Below, in pieces: positions 3,918 through 50,874 of a DNA stretch of 64,000 bases. Location of the stretch: the sequence record NZ_CP110908.1; one strand, written 5' to 3'. Each line of letters begins with the position of its first letter. The stretch's first letter is position 1. Made by a program: the position numbers and the translations under genes. This DNA is from a plasmid. The notes below the pieces were generated by a model. It made no database searches, was not told where the DNA came from, and saw only the letters and a list, made by a program, of their open reading frames with translations.

Positions 3918-4694
3918 ATGCCACGTTTTGCCGCTAATTTGTCCATGATGTTCACTGAGATCCCCTTTATTGAACGTTTTGCTGCCGCGCGAAATGCAGG
4001 ATTTAATGCTGTGGAGTTTCTGTTTCCTTATGATCACTCCCCGCATGAAATCCGGCAGCAACTGACACAAAACAATCTGACGCTTGTCCTGTTTAATACT
4101 GCAGCAGGAAATATCCATGCAGGAGAATGGGGATTATCCGCCCTGCCAGGGCGGGAGAAGGAGGCCCGTACGGATATCGATCGGGCACTGGAATATGCGC
4201 TGGCTCTCAATTGCGAGCAGGTCCACGTCATGGCAGGGGTCGTCCCCACCGGTGAAGATGCAGGCCTGTGTCGTGAGGTCTTTATCGACAACCTTCGCTA
4301 TGCTGCCGAACGCTTTGCACCACACGGTAAACGCGTCCTGATCGAAGCGCTCAGCCCTGGTGTGAAACCTGACTATCTTTTCTCCAGCCAGTATCAGGCA
4401 CTGGCGATTGTTAAAGAGGTCTCGCGTCCGAACGTCTTTATCCAGCTGGATACTTTCCATGCTCAAAAAGTGGATGGCAATCTGACCCGGTTAATCCGCG
4501 ATTACGCCGGAAAATATGCCCACGTTCAAATTGCCGGACTTCCTGACCGGCATGAACCGGACGACGGAGAAATTAACTATTCATGGCTTTTCCGCCTGTT
4601 CGATGAGGTGGAATACCCGGGCTGGATTGGGTGTGAGTACACCCCCCGAACCCATACCGAAGCTGGGCTTGGCTGGTTTAACGCCTGGCGATAA
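3918..4694 (+). CDS. otnI: 2-oxo-tetronate isomerase (hydroxypyruvate isomerase / xylose-isomerase-like TIM barrel, YgbM-like)
   Basis: 258 aa, Hyi family ([14 protein letters not shown]...). Operon position matches E. coli ygbM. Confidence 0.85.
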
Positions 4695-4779: not shown

Positions 4780-6147
4780 ATGTCCACTATCACATTGTTA
4801 TGCATTGCGTTAGCCGGCGTAATCATGCTGTTACTGCTGGTCATTAAGGCAAAAGTTCAGCCTTTCATTGCACTGTTGCTCGTCAGTCTGGTCGTTGCAC
4901 TAGCCGCGGGGATCCCGGCGGGTGACGTCAGCAAAGTCATGATCGCCGGAATGGGAGGTGTTCTCGGCTCCGTCACGATTATTATCGGCCTTGGCGCAAT
5001 GTTAGGGCGGATGATAGAGCATTCTGGCGGTGCTGAATCTCTGGCCAACTATTTCAGCCAAAAACTGGGAAGTAAACGCACCATTGCTGCACTCACCCTG
5101 GCCGCATTTTTCCTGGGTATTCCCGTGTTCTTTGATGTCGGGTTTATTATTCTGGCACCGATTATTTACGGTTTTGCCAAAGTAGCCAGGCTGTCCCCAC
5201 TTAAATTTGGTTTGCCGGTCGCCGGGATTATGCTGACCGTTCACGTGGCGGTACCTCCTCATCCAGGCCCGGTAGCCGCCGCAGGGTTACTCCATGCAGA
5301 TATTGGCTGGCTGACCATTCTCGGTATCGCCATTTCCATTCCGGTCGGTATTGTCGGCTACATTGCAGCCAGAATGATCAATAAACGTCAGTACGCGCTG
5401 TCCGTTGACGTGCTGGAACAGATGCAACTGACTCCCGCGGCCAGTTCCGGGGAAACCACGAAAATCAGTGACAAAATGAGCCCCCCAGGTGTGGCGCTGG
5501 TTACCGCTCTGATTGTCATTCCAATTGCCATTATTATGGCCGGAACCGTGTCTGCCACGTTAATGCCGGCATCGCATCCGCTGTTAGGCACGCTACAACT
5601 GCTTGGCTCCCCGATGGTGGCGCTGATGATTGCGCTGATACTGGCATTCTGGTTGCTGGCTTTACGTCGGGGCTGGGGTTTACAACATACCAGCGACATT
5701 ATGGGGTCGGCGCTACCCACTGCAGCAGTTGTCATCCTGGTGACGGGGGCGGGGGGCGTATTTGGTAAGGTTCTGGTGGAGTCCGGCGTGGGTAAGGCCC
5801 TTGCCAGTATGCTCCATATGATGGACCTGCCTCTGTTGCCTGCCGCCTTTATCATTTCACTGGCTCTCAGGGCATCACAGGGCTCAGCGACAGTGGCTAT
5901 TCTTACTACCGGTGGGCTACTTTCTGAAGCTGTTGTGGGGCTAAATCCGATCCAGTGCGTGCTGGTTACACTGGCTGCCTGCTTTGGCGGACTTGGGGCA
6001 TCACATATCAACGACTCTGGTTTCTGGATCGTGACCCGATACCTGGGATTAAGTGTGGCAGATGGACTGAAAACCTGGACCGTATTAACCACGATCCTCG
6101 GCTTCACAGGCTTCCTGATTACCTGGGGCATATGGGCAGTGGTTTAG
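4780..6147 (+). CDS. ygbN: GntP-family permease (YgbN-like transporter for threonate/erythronate)
   Basis: Multi-pass membrane ORF of GntP family. The six-frame ORF begins at 4741; the likely true start is the Met at 4780 (MSTITLLC...), giving about 455 aa as in YgbN. Confidence 0.8.
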   Translation: MSTITLLCIALAGVIMLLLLVIKAKVQPFIALLLVSLVVALAAGIPAGDVSKVMIAGMGGVLGSVTIIIGLGAMLGRMIEHSGGAESLANYFSQKLGSKRTIAALTLAAFFLGIPVFFDVGFIILAPIIYGFAKVARLSPLKFGLPVAGIMLTVHVAVPPHPGPVAAAGLLHADIGWLTILGIAISIPVGIVGYIAARMINKRQYALSVDVLEQMQLTPAASSGETTKISDKMSPPGVALVTALIVIPIAIIMAGTVSATLMPASHPLLGTLQLLGSPMVALMIALILAFWLLALRRGWGLQHTSDIMGSALPTAAVVILVTGAGGVFGKVLVESGVGKALASMLHMMDLPLLPAAFIISLALRASQGSATVAILTTGGLLSEAVVGLNPIQCVLVTLAACFGGLGASHINDSGFWIVTRYLGLSVADGLKTWTVLTTILGFTGFLITWGIWAVV

Positions 6148-6269
6148 CGTCAGTAAAAATCAGACACCAGTCAGAATTTTCACGCCCTGACCAGGAATGG
6201 TGAGGGGATGGGCATTCCGGTCACAGTCACCGCTGGTGAGCCACATCGCTTTACCTTTGCAACCTGATG

Positions 6270-33910: not shown

Positions 33911-35530
33911 TCGGCCGATTCTGTTGAAAAAGTAGCTTTAGCGGCAGCCTGCCGATCAGGTGTGCCTGCTGTCGAAGTGGCTGCAAGCCACTTCAAGTTG
34001 CCTTCCGGCGTTTCACTGAGCGTCCTTGCTCAGGTTTAAGGGTTAATTTGAGGGTTTCTGCTCGTAGCAGGCATACCTATCCCGTCAGCGGTGGCCCTTG
34101 AGGCAAAAGCTTGGCCATGCGGCGCAGGTTCTGCACCATCGCAGCCAAGGTGAATTCGTCAGTGGCACCCGTTAGGCCACGCAGTCGTAAACGGTCGAGT
34201 TTCATGATCCGTTTGAGGTGGGCGAAAAGCATCTCCACCTTCTTTCGTTCGCAGCGAGAGACGAGGTACTCCGGTGTCTTGGCGATGCGTCGAGCCACGT
34301 CGCGGGCAGCCTCATGGATGCTGCGGACGATCTTCCGATTCGGCGTGTTGGGGCAGCATTTCGCTTTCAACGGGCAGGTGGCGCAGTCGGTTTGGCTGGA
34401 GCGGTAAATGACGGTTTTGGCCTTAGTTACCCGCGACCTTTGCTGGGTGAAGGCGCGCCATTCACTGCGTAGCGGTTTGCCGGCTGGGCAGCGATATTCA
34501 TTGGCGTCCTGACTCCAGTGAAAGTCGTTACTGGAGAGGCTGTCGTCCTTGCGCTCGGTCTTGTCCCACACCGGCACATGCGGTTCGATGTCCTTTTCTT
34601 CGACCATCCAGGCCAGCATCGGGGCGGTGCCATAAGCGGTATCGCCGATAAGGCGTTCCGGTGTGAGATCGAACTGCGCCTCGACACGCTCGACCATCGT
34701 CCTAGTCGAATCGACTTCGGCGGTACGGTGCGCCGGGGTAGCTTCCACGTCCATGATCACACCGTGCTCAGTGTCGATCAGGTAATTCGTGGAGTAGGCA
34801 AAAAAGGCCGGGCCACCTGGCGCTGCTGTCCAACGGGACTGAGGATCAGTGAGCGAAATTTTCTTGGGAAGAGCCTCAGCCAGCGCCTCTTCATCAAGGG
34901 CTTCGAGGTACTCGCGCACTGCGCGGCTGCTGAGCTTTGGATCGTTCCAATCGACCTCATCTCCCGCCACCCCACGTTGCCGGCTGGCATCCGCCTTAAT
35001 GATGCTGGCGTCGACGGCGAAACCTTCACCCTTGACTAGGCCGGCTGCCATGCAGCGCCGCAGCACCTCATTGAATAACCAGCGGAATAGATCGCTGTCA
35101 CGAAAACGCCCATGGCGATTCTTCGAGAAGGTCGAGTGATTGGGGACTTCGTCTTCCAGACCCAACCGGCAGAACCAGCGATAGGCCAGGTTCAGGTGCA
35201 CCTCTTCGCACAATCGCCGCTCGGAACGAATGCCATAGCAGTAGCCGACGACCAGCATGCGCACCATCAACTCCGGGTCAATCGAGGGACGCCCGATGGG
35301 GCTATAGAAATCTGCCAGGTAGGCACGTAGATCACTGAGATCCAAGCACTGGTCGATGCTGCGCAGGAGATGTTGGGCCGGGACGTGATCTTCCAGATTG
35401 AACGAGTAGAACAGGCGCTGCTGTCCTCCCGGTAACTGTCCCATCATGCTGTTCGCCCCCACGCTCGCTGACAAAGCAATTTTGCCAACGGCATGGGGAG
35501 GCCGCTACTTTTTCAACAGAATCGGCCGCA
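33911..35530 (-). mobile_element. IS1182-family insertion sequence (ISCfr1-like), ~1620 bp
   Basis: The 28-bp terminal inverted repeat CGGCCGATTCTGTTGAAAAAGTAGCGGC is at 33911-33938 and, as its reverse complement, at 35503-35530. It encloses a 465-aa IS1182/IS5-superfamily DDE transposase. Confidence 0.75.
34077..35474 (-). CDS. IS1182-family DDE transposase
   Basis: 465 aa with the Transposase_DDE/IS1182 architecture: an N-terminal HTH plus a C-terminal DDE domain with cysteine-rich tail CPAGKPL...CATCPLKAKCC. Confidence 0.75.
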   Translation of the reverse strand: MSASVGANSMMGQLPGGQQRLFYSFNLEDHVPAQHLLRSIDQCLDLSDLRAYLADFYSPIGRPSIDPELMVRMLVVGYCYGIRSERRLCEEVHLNLAYRWFCRLGLEDEVPNHSTFSKNRHGRFRDSDLFRWLFNEVLRRCMAAGLVKGEGFAVDASIIKADASRQRGVAGDEVDWNDPKLSSRAVREYLEALDEEALAEALPKKISLTDPQSRWTAAPGGPAFFAYSTNYLIDTEHGVIMDVEATPAHRTAEVDSTRTMVERVEAQFDLTPERLIGDTAYGTAPMLAWMVEEKDIEPHVPVWDKTERKDDSLSSNDFHWSQDANEYRCPAGKPLRSEWRAFTQQRSRVTKAKTVIYRSSQTDCATCPLKAKCCPNTPNRKIVRSIHEAARDVARRIAKTPEYLVSRCERKKVEMLFAHLKRIMKLDRLRLRGLTGATDEFTLAAMVQNLRRMAKLLPQGPPLTG

Positions 35531-35561
35531 CACAGCCATTCGGCTCAACAGAACCCTGCCT

Positions 35562-36875
35562 TTACCCCACCAAACTCCGGAAACTCGCCCGGTAGTCCGT
35601 CGGCTTGAGATGCACATGTTGGCTGAGGTCGCCGGGTAGCGTGAACAGGCGCGGACCGTCCCGAAACTGGAACACGCGATACAGATGGAATTGATCGCCC
35701 GCCTCCTTGGAGAATTCGAGTTCGTTGTGGCTGACCAAGAAAGACGAGCCTACCCCGCCATTGGTGGTTTTCACCTCGATGAAGCGCTCATGGGCGTCCT
35801 CTTCGAACGACAGGATGTCGAACCCCGCACCGTCTCCCTGGGTGTCGGACACCCAATCCAGCCGCTGAAAAAGCTCTGGGTGGCCGAGCTCGGTCAGGCG
35901 TTGCTGTTCGTAGCCAATCACCCACTGCTCCCCTGCCCGGCCCAGCTTGCGGTTGGCTTCATCGCGAGCGGCATAATCGAACTTTCGCGGTAGGCGTTGC
36001 CGTAGAGATGCCGGGGTACGCACAAGCACTTCACGGGCGGGTGGTTCTACCAAAGCCGCTCGGTAGGTTTTGTCACCCGGAAGTTTTACCTCCTCCAGGG
36101 CATCGACAAGAGCGCCGACCGTCTGCTGATGTTCCAGAACGTAGGCGTGTACGGATTTACGCAGCAGCAGTTGGCTGTTGCCGCGTGGCTTGTAGCCGTT
36201 GATATAGGGCAGGCCCAGGGCATCGAGTACGGCGCTAATGTTCTGGTGCTTGAGCTCGACTGAAGACTTGCTGCGACCGTTCAGCAGTTGGCGCAGTGCC
36301 TGGTTGTGCTCGGACTTGTGGTACGGCTCCCCAGCCGCCTCGGCACGCAGCATGTCGAAATAGTCTTCGACCGTGGCCAGGACCTCTTCTTCGGACCAGT
36401 CTTCGCCGATGCGAATGATGCGAAACCCGAGCCGCGTCAGCGCCGGAACGACGGTCGTCTCGCCACCGGAGAAGCTGTCAGCAGTGAGCGGGCCCTGCTC
36501 GGGAAATTGCTTGCCGAAGGCCACACCGGCGATGGCCTTGGAATCGCAATCGGTGCCGGTCTTCGGATCACGTACCAGGAAGTCGCGGGACTTGCCGTAG
36601 CCGTGGCGCGCCAGGAATTTCGTGCGGCCCAGTTGCACGAACTCATCGATGGCAGCCTGCACGGCGGCGGGGCTTCGAAGCTGGGAGAGTTGAGACACAG
36701 GGTCCTTCCTTACTGTCATGGTGTGCCGGGAACCGCCGAGCCACGAGATTATGAGTAGCCCCTGAACAGAAACGTCACGATAAAAGCCGTGAACGCCACC
36801 AGGCCCATTAAATCCCTTGCGTATTTGCAGCCCGTGCTGTCCAAACCTGTACCAGGTCCGATCAACACGCTCCAA
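35562..36875 (-). CDS. Hypothetical protein with C-terminal DUF3883 (restriction-endonuclease-like, NO-VEIN C-terminal) domain
   Basis: The C-terminal ~100 aa (GAGFDILSFEEDAHERFIEVKTTNGGVGSSFLVSHNELEFSKEAGDQFHLYRVF) fit DUF3883. The ORF-track start is a TTG; a more plausible start is the ATG at 36719 (MTVRKDPVSQ...). No catalytic assignment is possible. Confidence 0.5.
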   Translation of the reverse strand: MERVDRTWYRFGQHGLQIRKGFNGPGGVHGFYRDVSVQGLLIISWLGGSRHTMTVRKDPVSQLSQLRSPAAVQAAIDEFVQLGRTKFLARHGYGKSRDFLVRDPKTGTDCDSKAIAGVAFGKQFPEQGPLTADSFSGGETTVVPALTRLGFRIIRIGEDWSEEEVLATVEDYFDMLRAEAAGEPYHKSEHNQALRQLLNGRSKSSVELKHQNISAVLDALGLPYINGYKPRGNSQLLLRKSVHAYVLEHQQTVGALVDALEEVKLPGDKTYRAALVEPPAREVLVRTPASLRQRLPRKFDYAARDEANRKLGRAGEQWVIGYEQQRLTELGHPELFQRLDWVSDTQGDGAGFDILSFEEDAHERFIEVKTTNGGVGSSFLVSHNELEFSKEAGDQFHLYRVFQFRDGPRLFTLPGDLSQHVHLKPTDYRASFRSLVG

Positions 36876-37280
36876 CCATTGAGGTACGAAAACACCGCCT
36901 GACCGAACAAAAAATGCGTGATAGCCGCCGCAGCCATGACGCCGGAATCGTCAGACAGGCTGTAGCTGTTGACCATTGCCCTGTACGCCTGCATCTGAAA
37001 TGGCTATTGCCCTGATGGGAGCCGGCTTTTCAGCCACCGACACCAGCGATGCCGTCAATATTCTTTACCCGATAACCATGACCGTACAAGCTAACAAGGC
37101 CTGGCAAGCCAGCGGACTTAAAAAGTCTTTTTTTCTACCATCCCACAAAAAAGTTCGTGGTGGAGAAAAGATAAGCTATGCAAGGCTTTAGGAGACGTGG
37201 TTTTTCAGGATGACGAAGAACGATTCGGCGCTAGGTGCAACATAGGTGCATCGCACGAGCGCTAGGAACGGCGAAAAAAG

Positions 37281-37579
37281 GCGGACGTGGCGAAATCGGT
37301 AGACGCAGCAGACTTTAAAATTGGAGTGCCCGCGGGGAAATCCGCGGAGTAGAACCGCTCAAAGTCGGGGAACGCTAACGGGCAATACCCTAAGCCAATC
37401 CCGAGCCAAGCCCCTTCGGGGGAAGGTGTAGAGACTGGACGGGCGGCGCCTAAAGCCTTCGGGCAATGGCGAAGGGACAGTCCAGACCACGAACGTCATC
37501 AGACGGCGGCGAAAGTCGAGGTGGTACGAAAATCTGCTTCTCTGTGAGAGTACGGGTTCGAGTCCCGTCGTCCGCACCA
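37281..37579 (+). tRNA. trnL(UAA): tRNA-Leu(UAA) gene interrupted in the anticodon loop (between U34 and A35) by a 213-nt group-I-type intron; CCA encoded
   Basis: Exon 1 (37281-37315) plus exon 2 (37529-37579) fold into a perfect class II cloverleaf. The acceptor is GCGGACG/CGTCCGC. The D arm is GCG-AAATCGGTAGA-CGC. The anticodon stem is GCAGA/TCTGC with loop CUU|AAAA, giving anticodon UAA. The variable arm is TCTC-TGTG-AGAG. The T arm is ACGGG-TTCGAGT-CCCGT, with discriminator A and CCA. The intervening sequence (37316-37528) ends in G after an exonic U and contains cyanobacterial/plastid trnL-intron-like blocks (AATCCCGAGCCAAGCC and GTAGAGACTGGACGG...CAGTCCAGACC). Confidence 0.8.
37316..37528 (+). 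ncRNA. Putative group I self-splicing intron within tRNA-Leu(UAA)
   Basis: 213 nt at the canonical tRNA-Leu(UAA) intron position, with a 5' splice site after U and a terminal omega-G. It has P7-like paired elements (GACTGGACGG / CAGTCCAGAC) and a GAAA tetraloop region (GCGGGGAAATCCGCGG). Confidence 0.65.
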
Positions 37580-37672
37580 CAAAGCCAAACATCCCTGCGA
37601 TGATCGACCTCTGGGCGTTTGGTCGTGAGCCCGCCACCCTCGCGCTACGCTTTGCGCAGGCGTCGAAGGCGA

Positions 37673-38215
37673 TCAGGTGCGCCCATCGATTCCGTCGAGC
37701 ACCATCGCTGCGAGTTCATCGCTGGTGTGTGCACCACTATCGAGAACACGGGTTGTGCATGGAAGCCGTTCCCTTGCGGCCAAGCATCGGGCGACATTCG
37801 CTAATCGCCACTCTCGAATCTCCGCATTTCGATTCGGGTCAGGATGCATGGTCTGGTTCGCGATCCGGTGACGCAATAGGTCCTCGTTGAGCGTCAGAAA
37901 GATGTGCAGCAGCTGATCGTCGATCCGCCTTACCCCGTCGAGTATCTCAGTCAGATAGTCCGGGTGCACGAGCGTCATTGGGATGATGATGTCCTGCGAG
38001 TAATTCCTTCGAATCTCCCTGACCGCCGCGATCGTAAGTCCCCTCCACAAGGGGAGATCCTGATAGTCTCCGCTCGCTGGCATGGGGACCGTTTCTTTCA
38101 CCACGAACCCGATTTCCTCGGGGTCAAAGATCAGCGATTTGGAACGCCGATCGCGCAGCCGCTTAGCGAGCGTCGTCTTTCCGGCGCCGAAAGGTCCGTT
38201 GATCCAGATTATCAT
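37673..38215 (-). CDS. tmrB: TmrB-like ATP-binding protein (tunicamycin-resistance protein family)
   Basis: 180 aa with a P-loop (MIIWINGPFGAGKTTLAKRL). This is the canonical partner gene downstream of aac(3)-II in resistance modules. Confidence 0.85.
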   Translation of the reverse strand: MIIWINGPFGAGKTTLAKRLRDRRSKSLIFDPEEIGFVVKETVPMPASGDYQDLPLWRGLTIAAVREIRRNYSQDIIIPMTLVHPDYLTEILDGVRRIDDQLLHIFLTLNEDLLRHRIANQTMHPDPNRNAEIREWRLANVARCLAARERLPCTTRVLDSGAHTSDELAAMVLDGIDGRT

Positions 38216-38227
38216 TGTCGACGGCCT

Positions 38228-39088
38228 CTAACCTGAAGGCTCGCAAGAGCGCTCGACGGCCTCGTGCGGAGGCACGATCGGAGTGGTTCCGAAATGCTTC
38301 TCAAGATAGGTGACGCCGAACGTCACGATGTCCTGCGCGTCGAACAGGTAGCACTGAGCAAAGCCCACGACACCTTCTCGATGGCGACCGAGCTTCACGT
38401 AAGCATTTGCTATAGTTTCAACCGCATCCGGCTTTCCTTCGATAGCAAAGCAATCGAGAATGCCGTTTGAATCGTAATCCGATGCCGTTTTCCAGGCGAC
38501 TTCACCGTCTCTTCCAAGCATCGGCATCTCATACGTCACCCACCGTTTGTTGGGGATATCGGCAACCGCCTCGGCGTAGTGCAATGCGGTAACGGAGTTT
38601 AGCGGCGCACCCAACAGCAGGGCCTTCCCGCCAAGGCGAACGAACCGCTCGACGGGCGATCCTTCCCCCAAGGCGTGACCGAGTTCGTGAGGCTCCGTCA
38701 GCGTTTCAGCCAGCGGACCAACCGCGACCATCGATGCATCGGGGTGCGCGCTGCGCCGCGCGCCGGGGGCTTGAACCAGAAATTGATTCAGCAGGCCGAA
38801 CCCACGGTAAGTCCCGGCTGTTGCGGGATCGAACGGCAGCCAGGTACGGCGGGCTTCGTCATCCAGCCGAGCGCCATTCAGAGTCTCCTCGTAGGGTGAT
38901 CGGTCCCACGACGCGTATCCCATCACAGTGCCAGTCGGCCCAACCGCGGAGCGTAACGCGGCAACGACCGTCTCCGCTCCTCCTTCGACCGGACCAATCG
39001 CTTTAAGTGAGGCATGCACCATCAAGAGGTCACCGGTTTGGACTCCGAGTTTTTGAAGCGCCTCCGTTATTGCCTTCCGCGTATGCAT
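38228..39088 (-). CDS. aac(3)-IId: Aminoglycoside 3-N-acetyltransferase AAC(3)-II (IId/IIa type; gentamicin/tobramycin resistance)
   Basis: 286 aa from MHTRKAITEALQKLGVQTGDLLMVHASLKAIGPVEGGAETVVAAL..., AAC(3)-II family. The six-frame ORF is extended upstream through the Tn3 IR ([11 protein letters not shown]...), and that extension is spurious. Confidence 0.9.
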   Translation of the reverse strand: MHTRKAITEALQKLGVQTGDLLMVHASLKAIGPVEGGAETVVAALRSAVGPTGTVMGYASWDRSPYEETLNGARLDDEARRTWLPFDPATAGTYRGFGLLNQFLVQAPGARRSAHPDASMVAVGPLAETLTEPHELGHALGEGSPVERFVRLGGKALLLGAPLNSVTALHYAEAVADIPNKRWVTYEMPMLGRDGEVAWKTASDYDSNGILDCFAIEGKPDAVETIANAYVKLGRHREGVVGFAQCYLFDAQDIVTFGVTYLEKHFGTTPIVPPHEAVERSCEPSG

Positions 39089-39120
39089 CGCGATATCTCC
39101 TCTAAACTGCAAAACACTAT

Positions 39121-39257
39121 ACGGGGTCTGACGCTCAGTGGAACGAAAACTCACGTTAAGGGATTTTGGTCATGAGATTATCAAAAAGGATCTTCACCTA
39201 GATCCTTTTAAATTAAAAATGAAGTTTTAAATCAATCTAAAGTATATATGAGTAAAC
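39121..39257 (-). mobile_element. Tn3-family right-end remnant (38-bp IR plus the bla 3' flank, with bla deleted) abutting IS26
   Basis: ggggtctgacgctcagtggaacgaaaactcacgttaag...atatgagtaaac is followed immediately by the IS26 IR. This is the classical IS26-truncated Tn3 structure next to aac(3)-IId. Confidence 0.85.
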
Positions 39258-50232: not shown

Positions 50233-50730
50233 TTAGCCGTTTCGACGCGCATAAACGGAGTGGGTGTACGGAATTACAGCTTGAATGGTTTCGGTTGAGA
50301 CAAGCTCGAATTCTGTTTCGTTGAGCATTGGGAAGAAGGCGTCACCCTTGAAGGTTTGATGTACCTCAGATAGAAACACGCCGTGGGCGTGAGGTAGTGC
50401 CAGAGTGTATATCTCAGCTCCGCCCGCGACGTAGAGTTCATTGCCGAGTTCGGATGCCAAAGCGATAGCGTGCGACAGCGTTGAAACAACTACGCAGCCA
50501 GTGGCGCGGTAGTTAGCTTGGCGTGAGATTACCAATGTGTGACGGTTCGGTAGAGGCTTGCCGATAGACTCAAAGGTCTTTCGCCCCATGACAACGACTT
50601 TTCCCTCAGTGAGTCTGCGAAAAATCTTCTGCTCACCCGGAATTTTCCAGGGGATATTAGGACCATTGCCAATAACCCGATTGGCTCCCATCGCAGCAAC
50701 GAGATAAATGCGTACTGATTCCGAGTTCAT
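50233..50730 (-). CDS. dfrA12: Trimethoprim-resistant dihydrofolate reductase DfrA12
   Basis: 165 aa, MNSESVRIYLVAAMGANRVIGNGPNIPWKIPGEQKIFRRLTEGKVVVMGRKTFESIGKPLPNRHTL... Confidence 0.9.
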   Translation of the reverse strand: MNSESVRIYLVAAMGANRVIGNGPNIPWKIPGEQKIFRRLTEGKVVVMGRKTFESIGKPLPNRHTLVISRQANYRATGCVVVSTLSHAIALASELGNELYVAGGAEIYTLALPHAHGVFLSEVHQTFKGDAFFPMLNETEFELVSTETIQAVIPYTHSVYARRNG

Positions 50731-50874
50731 ATGGCTAACTTTGTTTTAGGGCGACTGCCCTGCTGCGTAACATCGTTGCTGCTCCATAACATCAAACATC
50801 GACCCACGGCGTAACGCGCTTGCTGCTTGGATGCCCGAGGCATAGACTGTACAAAAAAACAGTCATAACAAGCC
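50731..50874. promoter_or_regulatory. attI1 recombination site plus the intI1 5' region of the class 1 integron (the Pc cassette promoter lies just inside intI1)
   Basis: Standard integron topology: divergent intI1 and first cassette. Not verified base by base. Confidence 0.5.

Follow-up and report, generated by a model that had tools for sequence, protein, structure and literature searches.

How does a tRNA gene that is split by a group I intron come to lie in the aac(3)-IId-tmrB resistance module of enterobacterial plasmids, and what becomes of it there? This question is raised by a 64,000-nt stretch of plasmid DNA (sequence record NZ_CP110908.1), referred to here as the window. At positions 37281-37579 of its plus strand it carries a complete tRNA-Leu(UAA) gene, interrupted after U34 by a group I intron of 213 nt. 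Cyanobacteria and plastids are the classical hosts of group I introns at this site of tRNA-Leu(UAA), and the pre-tRNA-Leu intron of Anabaena is their characterised prototype. The evidence presented below makes it likely, in our judgement with good confidence, that the window copy is an intact alphaproteobacterial gene with an intron devoid of open reading frames (ORFs), which was captured together with aac(3)-IId and tmrB and which is now most likely a passenger.

The splice junction reads CUU/u...g/AAAA, the intron starting with UAAAAUUGGAGU and ending with GGUACG, whose terminal (omega) G is G37528. When the intron is removed in silico, the resulting 86-mer is called by ARAGORN as tRNA-Leu(taa), a clean class II cloverleaf with a 7/7 paired acceptor stem, a D arm with its GG, UAA in a 7-nt anticodon loop, a long variable arm and a TTCGAGT T-loop of the GTTCGAGT type. 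The 3' end of the gene is ...CGTCCGC-A-CCA (37570-37579), with the discriminator A73 present and CCA encoded at 37577-37579. A73 matters for recognition by leucyl-tRNA synthetase (LeuRS), and the spliced product would be expected to be chargeable by this enzyme. A preliminary description of the locus, made from the letters alone, had claimed this cloverleaf after removal of 213 nt, together with the paired acceptor stem, the class II variable arm, the T-loop and the encoded ACCA, all of which are present as described. It had also placed the split between U34 and A35, at the classical group I ('Leu.3Ug') site, with the insert following an exonic U and ending with G; sequence, Rfam match and covariation agree with this placement, the exonic U pairing with a G in P1. 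If introns are allowed, ARAGORN itself finds a split tRNA at exactly 37281-37579, with the intron misplaced. The exon-plus-intron pattern was matched in 0 of 100 shuffles and the full structure covaries in 78 homologues, and a chance origin of the split-gene pattern is therefore excluded.

The fold of the intron was assessed in an alignment (A3) of the window with 77 non-identical homologues from public genomes, 78 sequences in all. The tRNA arms and the helices P1, P2, P3, P4, P5/5a, P6/6a, P7, P8/8a and P9/9a/9b were written onto the window sequence as 89 pairs, every one of which is Watson-Crick or G.U in the window copy. Across the alignment 96.8% of the cells are paired, whereas sliding the 3' partners by 1-3 columns lowers this to 33-43%; compensatory changes on both sides occur at 55 of the 89 pairs, and none of 500 shuffles reached the observed values. 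In the stems of the tRNA (acceptor, D, anticodon, variable and T) pairing amounts to 99-100%, and compensatory changes occur. At the 5' splice site, U37315.G37324 is invariant in all 78 sequences and the adjoining pair covaries (AU 45, UG 15, GU 9, CG 8), and the column of omega G37528 is invariant too. P5, P5a and P6a covary, whereas P4 and P6 never vary and are therefore uninformative either way. In P7, which by analogy with characterised group I introns would be the guanosine-binding site, pair 37437-37478 is G-C in the window and A-U in most homologues. When the window is compared with the columns that are at least 90% conserved among the 77 homologues, only one, unpaired, column deviates: the G at intron position 240, beside P9, where 71 of the 77 have A and the chromosomal gene of Enterovirga aerilata also has G. 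All pairs and all invariant core nucleotides are retained, and the window gene looks intact. The insert blocks AATCCCGAGCCAAGCC and GTAGAGACTGGACGG...CAGTCCAGACC, pointed out earlier as resembling conserved trnL-intron elements, correspond to the P4/P6 and P7/P3 core strands, and all helices of the anticipated P1-P9 fold, with its P1 pairing at the splice site, do form.

The P1 U.G splice site, the omega G, the P3-P7 pseudoknot, P4-P6, P8 and a P7 with its bulge place the intron in group I; the insertion at anticodon-loop position 3 of tRNA-Leu, the -1 U, the omega G and the kinship to IC3 tRNA introns place it in the Leu.3Ug/IC3 class. The IC3 label is taken from Williams (2020, bioRxiv 10.1101/2020.01.27.920355) and the intron database cited there, sequence kinship and insertion site being what was compared. 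There is no homing-endonuclease ORF inside the intron, whose 213 nt are almost wholly filled by P1-P9. The sole ORF of at least 50 aa that overlaps it (37359-37637, 92 aa) is not intron-borne, because it lies on the opposite strand and extends beyond the tRNA end.

The closest relatives of the gene are found in Alphaproteobacteria. A scan of one genome per bacterial or archaeal species with the exon-plus-intron pattern yielded at least 120 loci, a sample rather than a census, nearly all of them alphaproteobacterial, with a few from Bacteroidota and Gammaproteobacteria. Among the matches listed, the best is that of Enterovirga aerilata DB1703 (Methylobacteriaceae; locus L075), which is 95.4% identical over the 299-nt gene, with exons 100% and intron 93.5% identical. 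The others include a Bradyrhizobiaceae metagenome-assembled genome (MAG), AGun1 (L010; 95.0%, exons 98.8%, intron 93.1%), a Novosphingobium MAG (L012; 93.4%), Mesorhizobium sp. (L116; 90.7%) and Rhodovulum steppense (L003; 89.4%). Homology to these chromosomes extends about 170-180 nt upstream of the gene (to ~37098-37114) and ends downstream at or just beyond the CCA (37579-37594, depending on the relative). In Enterovirga and AGun1 the gene stands among ordinary metabolic genes, different in each genome. Compared with the seed introns of the survey by Williams, the window intron is 76% identical to Ncf2.Leu.3Ug, 71% to Rur1.Arg.5Ug, 60% to Aol6.Ile2.5Ug and 59% to Sel1.Leu.3Ug. On sequence comparison, tRNA and intron are thus of alphaproteobacterial, not cyanobacterial, ancestry.

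The gene had been described at first as cyanobacterial/plastid-type, a label that holds for the insertion site and the intron class, both of which are shared, and fails for ancestry. Its 5' exon had been likened, in addition, to plant trnL primer 'c', which contains the conserved D-arm CGAAATCGGTAGACGC. This D-arm is indeed present in the exon, although it occurs in all 78 aligned sequences and reflects general tRNA-Leu conservation. An origin of the gene in cyanobacteria or plastids is refuted by its near-identity to the Enterovirga gene and by its low identity to Sel1.Leu.3Ug, the seed that we take to be cyanobacterial; the upstream flank is alphaproteobacterial too, and we regard such an origin as practically impossible.

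Additional tRNA-like sequences accompany some of these loci. In the closest alphaproteobacterial relatives a tRNA-Leu 5'-half-like fragment, GCGGACGTGGCGGAACTGGTAGACGCAAGGGACTT, lies about 180-200 nt upstream of the intron-containing tRNA (L010 3523-3575, L075 2083-2122, L116 7532-7571, L012 ~4500-4520). Its tRNA likeness stops exactly at the intron insertion point and is followed by AAAAAGTC and a T run; it resembles the other exon subfamily and was found in only 6 of the 78 loci. The window retains at ~37098-37135 the decayed 3' part of such a fragment, ending in the GGACTTAAAAAGTC hairpin and a T run. Such fragments may go back to an old partial duplication or to a native 5' exon that was displaced, or may represent a regulatory hairpin. 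The 5'-half-like fragment is also the only repeat that would bear on a role of the tRNA as attachment (att) site of a genomic island, and it is not the usual 3'-end repeat; as no integrase was found beside the tRNA in the window, nor by Pfam in five flanking ORFs each of Enterovirga and AGun1, such a role is unsupported. One MAG contig (L007) holds two pattern matches in opposite orientation about 500 bp apart, 5534-5639 (+) and 6160-6268 (-), of which the second resembles the gene of the window in its first ~170 nt only and may be a partial copy.

The genes beyond the tRNA also have their nearest natural relatives in Alphaproteobacteria. The closest non-clinical homologues of TmrB, 88% identical, are encoded on metagenome contigs of 122-176 kb; identity is 81-83% in Sinorhizobium meliloti, Ensifer and other Rhizobiaceae, and 61-70% in Paracoccus, Geminicoccus, Azospirillum and Microvirga. 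As in the module, tmrB on the metagenome contigs comes after a gene of the AAC(3) family (Pfam Antibiotic_NAT), and the flanks are like those of a tmrB-only locus in S. meliloti. Comparison of window 37675-39122 with related aac(3)-tmrB loci (L122-L124, L130, L142-L146 and L147-L150) showed native-looking relatives in Rhizobiaceae, with 86.3% nucleotide identity to L122, 84.0% to L130 and 81.8% to the S. meliloti megaplasmid loci. These similarities point to an alphaproteobacterial origin of aac(3)-II. The metagenome contigs with 84-86% identity share, besides, a synteny of extracytoplasmic function (ECF) sigma factor, EF-hand and BA14K genes.

The main support for the tRNA gene being a relic captured together with these genes comes from three environmental contigs (L139-L141; ERZ23872204, SRR10763718), whose TmrB is 83% identical to that of the window and whose flanks match Shinella and S. 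meliloti pSymA DNA at 85-88% identity. They align unbroken with the window from 39112 down to 37485, that is, through aac(3), tmrB, the spacer, P9 and exon 2. What L139 carries is a truncated and mutated copy of the intron-containing tRNA gene, consisting of P9 and exon 2, in the same orientation and about 100 nt from tmrB, compared with 93-96 nt. The 3' strand of its anticodon stem is TCTAC instead of TCTGC, which breaks a pair, and its T-loop is TTCGCGT instead of TTCGAGT. An nhmmer profile of alignment A3 recognises the remnant of this type with E = 3e-15 (model positions 211-308) and detects no tRNA remnant at the other aac(3)-tmrB loci; a candidate 3' remnant downstream of tmrB in L122, seen in a by-eye alignment, was dropped because its nhmmer match was not significant. 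As aligned, these contigs show that outside the clinical module, too, an alphaproteobacterial lineage had an intron-containing tRNA-Leu gene and tmrB-aac(3) arranged convergently. The remnant of L139-L141, in the corresponding position next to tmrB, supports the earlier suggestion that the tRNA might be left over from the genome that donated aac(3)-II/tmrB. When metagenomes were scanned for the tRNA-spacer-tmrB junction, 13 contigs came up; apart from one short 97.2% variant they were the clinical module at 99% identity or more, and hence no donor context was gained. This variant (L161; ERZ772835 NODE-12427, 1,273 bp) matches window 37544-38853 and still has the tRNA 3' end beside tmrB, although it is too short to provide context.

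The current model proposes that about 2 kb of an alphaproteobacterial replicon (~37098-39122), comprising the upstream flank, the tRNA gene, the spacer, tmrB and aac(3)-II, would have been taken up as a single piece, and that this piece would later have been joined to unrelated DNA, namely a Stutzerimonas-like DUF3883 gene with its insertion sequence (IS) element, and IS26. The tRNA gene would lie within the aac(3)-IId-tmrB module because the alphaproteobacterial DNA was captured as one piece. The most fitting reading of it is that of a donor-genome relic captured along with tmrB and aac(3)-II; the source we infer to be in the Hyphomicrobiales and probably Rhizobiaceae-like.

Several observations weigh against this reading. 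Evidence that tRNA and tmrB were neighbours in a donor comes from one environmental lineage, L139-L141; none of the loci compared is the direct donor, and closer relatives of the tRNA may exist beyond the at least 120 loci of the scan. A variant 94.6% identical over the whole alignment, IS-flanked and present in Brucella (Ochrobactrum) intermedia and others, keeps the spacer to 37593 and is without the tRNA. The Intron_gpI score of the window copy remains below the curated Rfam gathering score of 50, and the minimum free energy fold of the precursor, in which many of the helices are recovered, has a z-score of -1.31, which is not significant, so that the structural case rests on covariation and not on thermodynamics. 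The near-identity of the ~1,300 plasmid copies reflects recent spread and is therefore uninformative on selection either way. Finally, most natural aac(3)-tmrB loci examined have no adjoining tRNA, and the best tRNA match (95%; Methylobacteriaceae/Bradyrhizobiaceae) and the best natural aac(3)-tmrB contexts (82-86%; Rhizobiaceae) belong to different families. These last two points also favour the idea that the tRNA and aac(3)-tmrB derive from different organisms and were joined by IS elements on a plasmid, in which case the tRNA would tell nothing of the donor of the resistance gene. The module is, moreover, demonstrably mosaic, with a Stutzerimonas segment (33913-36697, 89.6%) and a further one (36698-37097) that matches none of the loci fetched. 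Such a joining is nevertheless improbable: the remnant of L139-L141 belongs to the same intron-tRNA subfamily and lies in the same orientation, at a similar distance from tmrB, in non-clinical DNA with Rhizobiaceae-type flanks, and the window contains neither an IS end nor a repeat between tRNA and tmrB.

The features of the locus, including the segments of the mosaic, are compiled in Table 1. The Stutzerimonas-like segment consists of the DUF3883 gene and an adjoining IS1182-like element and has its 89.6% match in a Stutzerimonas kunmingensis contig. Homology stops at 36697, which is the start of a 378-aa protein, and the 437-aa ORF of the window is therefore probably over-extended. The possibility that the DUF3883 gene came from the same donor as the tRNA and tmrB was rejected, as it is Stutzerimonas- or Pseudomonas-like. 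In the Stutzerimonas contig the DUF3883 (ScoMcrA_N/NOV_C) gene follows a gene for a 1,729-aa DEAD/UvrD helicase, in a setting reminiscent of a defence island. The segment 36698-37097 is touched by two hypothetical ORFs of RefSeq, 36749-36994 (-) and 36976-37191 (+).

Table 1. Features of the intron-split tRNA-Leu(UAA) locus and of the surrounding module (positions in the window).
Feature	Coordinates	Strand	Remarks
Upstream flank	37098..37280	+	homologous to DNA upstream of the same tRNA gene in Alphaproteobacteria
Exon 1 (35 nt)	37281..37315	+	acceptor 5' strand, D arm, anticodon-stem 5' strand, C32 U33 U34; ends ...GCAGACUU
Group I intron, bacterial tRNA type (IC3-like), ORF-less, 213 nt	37316..37528	+	Rfam Intron_gpI match, canonical helices, covariation
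P1 hairpin	37312-37317 with 37322-37327	+	5' splice site after U37315, U.G wobble with G37324
P2 hairpin, GAAA loop	37328..37350	+	compensatory changes in 7/9 pairs
P3 5' strand	37355..37360 with 37441-37446	+	pseudoknot with P7; 100% paired, 5/6 pairs change on both sides
P4-P5-P5a-P6-P6a domain	37365..37427	+	P4 37365-70 with 37399-404; P6 37405-07 with 37425-27; UUCG loop on P6a
P7 5' strand, bulged A	37431..37437 with 37478-37483	+	99.8% paired
P8 and P8a	37447..37471	+	canonical in the window; P8 100% paired in A3
P9, with P9a and GAAA-capped P9b	37486..37525	+	canonical in the window; A3 covariation analysis
Exon 2 (51 nt)	37529..37579	+	starts AAAAUCUGC; A35 A36, anticodon-stem 3' strand, long variable arm, T arm, acceptor 3' strand, A73, CCA
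Spacer, 93 nt, tRNA 3' end to tmrB stop codon	37580..37672	.	common to Brucella/Ochrobactrum-type loci back to 37593; weakly with L139
tmrB-like AAA ATPase, 180 aa	37673..38215	-	convergent with the tRNA; nearest natural homologues alphaproteobacterial
aac(3)-IId, 286 aa	38228..39088	-	donor-type homology extends to 39122
Mosaic segment	33913-36697		Stutzerimonas-like
Mosaic segment	36698 to ~37097		400 bp, no homology to any locus fetched
Mosaic segment	~37098-37581		alphaproteobacterial tRNA locus
Mosaic segment	37582-37674		spacer
Mosaic segment	37675-39122		Rhizobiaceae-type tmrB-aac(3)

The gene escapes the tools that are commonly used for annotation. Default ARAGORN finds no tRNA in the 64-kb window and nothing in six homologous alphaproteobacterial loci, because it does not handle the intron. 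Rfam at gathering thresholds makes no intron or tRNA call in the window nor in four homologous loci. In the E-value mode, applied to 551 nt, Intron_gpI (RF00028) is matched over its full model at 37306-37498 with 36.8 bits and E = 7.9e-8. This match and the tRNA-Leu(taa) call on the spliced form confirm what the preliminary description had expected of covariance and tRNA models, even though the score is sub-gathering. The chromosomal alphaproteobacterial homologues likewise stay under the Rfam gathering threshold. At the chromosomal loci of AGun1, Enterovirga, Novosphingobium and Mesorhizobium neither tRNA nor intron is called by default ARAGORN or by Rfam at these thresholds. As the chromosomal homologues are missed too, this is a systematic blind spot for the gene class and not a peculiarity of the plasmid copy. 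According to Williams (2020, bioRxiv 10.1101/2020.01.27.920355), none of the 12 seeds in the Rfam group I model used was bacterial. The only match in the window that reaches a gathering threshold is AAC_AAD_leader (putative aminoglycoside riboswitch / attI site) at 50707-50785 (-), with 71.2 bits, which suggests the presence of a class 1 integron elsewhere in the window.

The plasmid copies are nonetheless abundant. A 461-bp segment around the gene matched 1,316 PLSDB plasmids, 1,309 of them at 99% identity or more and mostly at 100%; the hosts include Escherichia, Klebsiella, Salmonella, Acinetobacter, Aeromonas and Pseudomonas. The segment is also present in 646 of 5,426 complete Escherichia coli genomes (~12%). 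The claim that tRNA genes with group I introns are essentially unknown in Enterobacteriaceae must therefore be corrected, since the element is not rare and has simply remained unannotated: no annotated feature underlies the segment in any record among the matches listed, and RefSeq is blank there. The typical RefSeq order is IS26, DUF3883 (-), two small hypothetical ORFs, the unannotated tRNA (+), the tmrB-like AAA ATPase (-) and aac(3)-IId (-), in accordance with the position between the DUF3883 gene and tmrB given originally. DNA like aac(3)-II/tmrB occurs in 934 E. coli genomes. At 99% identity or more, 669 E. coli records have the tRNA segment and 749 have aac(3)-tmrB, and it follows that roughly 89% of the IId-type copies have kept the tRNA. 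The aac(3)-IIa/IIe-type variants, and the 95-99% variants examined, are without it, and IS91-like or IS3-family elements abut their tmrB.

If the gene is transcribed, the precursor would fold into P1-P9, and exogenous guanosine would attack after U37315, which P1 holds in its U.G wobble; docking of the terminal G37528 and ligation of the exons would follow, giving an 86-nt tRNA-Leu(UAA) with A73 and encoded CCA. Such two-step, guanosine-initiated splicing is what the anatomy of the gene leads one to expect. As for transcription, neither a sigma-70 consensus promoter nor an intrinsic terminator relevant to the tRNA turned up when 36700-37800 was scanned for consensus sequences, and the upstream regions of the homologues share no clear -35/-10 consensus. 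A -10-like GAGAAT block that is kept in the closest relatives has become TAGGAA in the window. In ten of the homologous loci a TGTGGCAC(G)A motif recurs 10-20 nt upstream of the mature 5' end; the closest relatives have a GAGAATCGGCG block in place of the TGTGGCAC motif, and the window version of it is TAGGAACGGCG. Both upstream motifs may be promoter elements.

In Enterobacteriaceae the gene is most likely a neutral hitch-hiking passenger, held by its 93-bp linkage to tmrB rather than by selection. It could be argued instead that it is a functional accessory tRNA, transcribed and self-splicing in these hosts, and that an extra tRNA-Leu(UAA) is selectively useful there, for example in decoding UUA/UUG or in replacing or buffering host tRNA cut by anticodon nucleases. 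The gene is fully intact, with canonical helices and one deviation in a conserved column, it encodes A73 and CCA, it retains ~170-180 nt of native upstream flank that may hold the native promoter, and it persists in most aac(3)-IId-type E. coli copies. The linkage to tmrB and the fact that a single module has spread recently explain this persistence, however; the tRNA is missing from sister aac(3)-II modules, and E. coli already possesses a tRNA-Leu(UAA) gene. With no sigma-70 consensus promoter found in the scan and the GAGAAT block altered, a selected function seems unlikely. The opposite possibility, that subtle mutations have put ribozyme or tRNA out of action and left a pseudogene in every host, would fit the changed promoter-like block and the G at intron position 240, but the Enterovirga chromosomal gene has the same G, and every pair and invariant core nucleotide is retained. 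True decay, as seen in L139 with its broken anticodon-stem pair and altered T-loop, has no parallel in the window copy, and we consider a dead relic very improbable.

Introns in proteobacterial tRNA genes, such as those of Azoarcus tRNA-Ile and Agrobacterium tRNA-Arg, have long been known. The window intron shares with other Leu.3Ug introns the same tRNA, the U34/A35 site, the -1 U in the P1 U.G wobble, the omega G, a compact ORF-less P1-P9 architecture and the same core motifs. It differs from the seed Sel1 in belonging to an alphaproteobacterial subfamily and, unlike the classical members, it is found on enterobacterial resistance plasmids and not on a chromosome or plastid genome. With the genes of Enterovirga aerilata DB1703 and AGun1 it shares the upstream flank, including the tRNA 5'-half-like fragment, although the window copy lies between the Stutzerimonas-derived segment and tmrB, in an IS26-bounded resistance region, and not among metabolic genes. 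The introns of Azoarcus tRNA-Ile(CAU) and Agrobacterium-type tRNA-Arg (IC3; seeds Aol6.Ile2.5Ug and Rur1.Arg.5Ug) have the same core, GGUGUAGAGACU...GACGG and AAGGGAxAGUCC, and the same GAAA-capped P2 and P9 hairpins, whereas they split other tRNAs at another anticodon-loop position. The native aac(3)-tmrB loci of Rhizobiaceae (S. meliloti megaplasmids, Ensifer- and Shinella-like contigs) resemble the module in their two-gene arrangement, with 82-86% nucleotide identity, and the L139-L141 lineage also in having the intron-containing tRNA, as a remnant, beside tmrB; most of them lack the tRNA, however, and none is close enough to be the direct donor.

A survey of 80,413 genomes has mapped 5,292 intron-split tRNA genes, including the class Leu.3Ug with Nostoc azollae as a classical example, and its available text, the taxon table aside, makes no mention of plasmids or resistance genes (Williams, 2020, bioRxiv 10.1101/2020.01.27.920355). 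Copies of the present module were very probably counted in it. Our literature search retrieved no paper tying tmrB or aac(3)-II to a tRNA, a group I intron or rhizobia. An intron-split tRNA-Leu is common in Alphaproteobacteria, as judged from the at least 120 loci listed, and mechanistically it is an ordinary bacterial tRNA intron. What appears to be new is that it sits in a clinical resistance module of wide distribution, that standard annotation does not see it, and that it can serve as a marker of an alphaproteobacterial (Hyphomicrobiales, probably Rhizobiaceae-like) origin of aac(3)-II/tmrB.

The finding reveals an annotation gap, as an intact intron-split tRNA has been left unannotated in ~1,300 PLSDB plasmids and ~12% of complete E. 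coli genomes; bacterial tRNAs split by introns are overlooked by tRNA finders in default mode and by Rfam at gathering thresholds. It also bears on the history of aac(3)-II, which is among the commonest gentamicin-resistance genes of Enterobacteriaceae and whose origin we have not found described in the literature. tRNA exons and their flanks mark lineages well; taken with the fact that aac(3)-II/tmrB has relatives of Rhizobiaceae type, they point to a member of the Hyphomicrobiales, an alphaproteobacterium from soil or associated with plants, as the source. Finally, the locus offers a simple experimental way to learn whether, phages apart, a natural group I intron is spliced in E. coli. If it proved to be expressed and spliced, about one eighth of sequenced E. 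coli would harbour an active natural group I ribozyme together with an active tRNA-Leu(UAA) of foreign origin.

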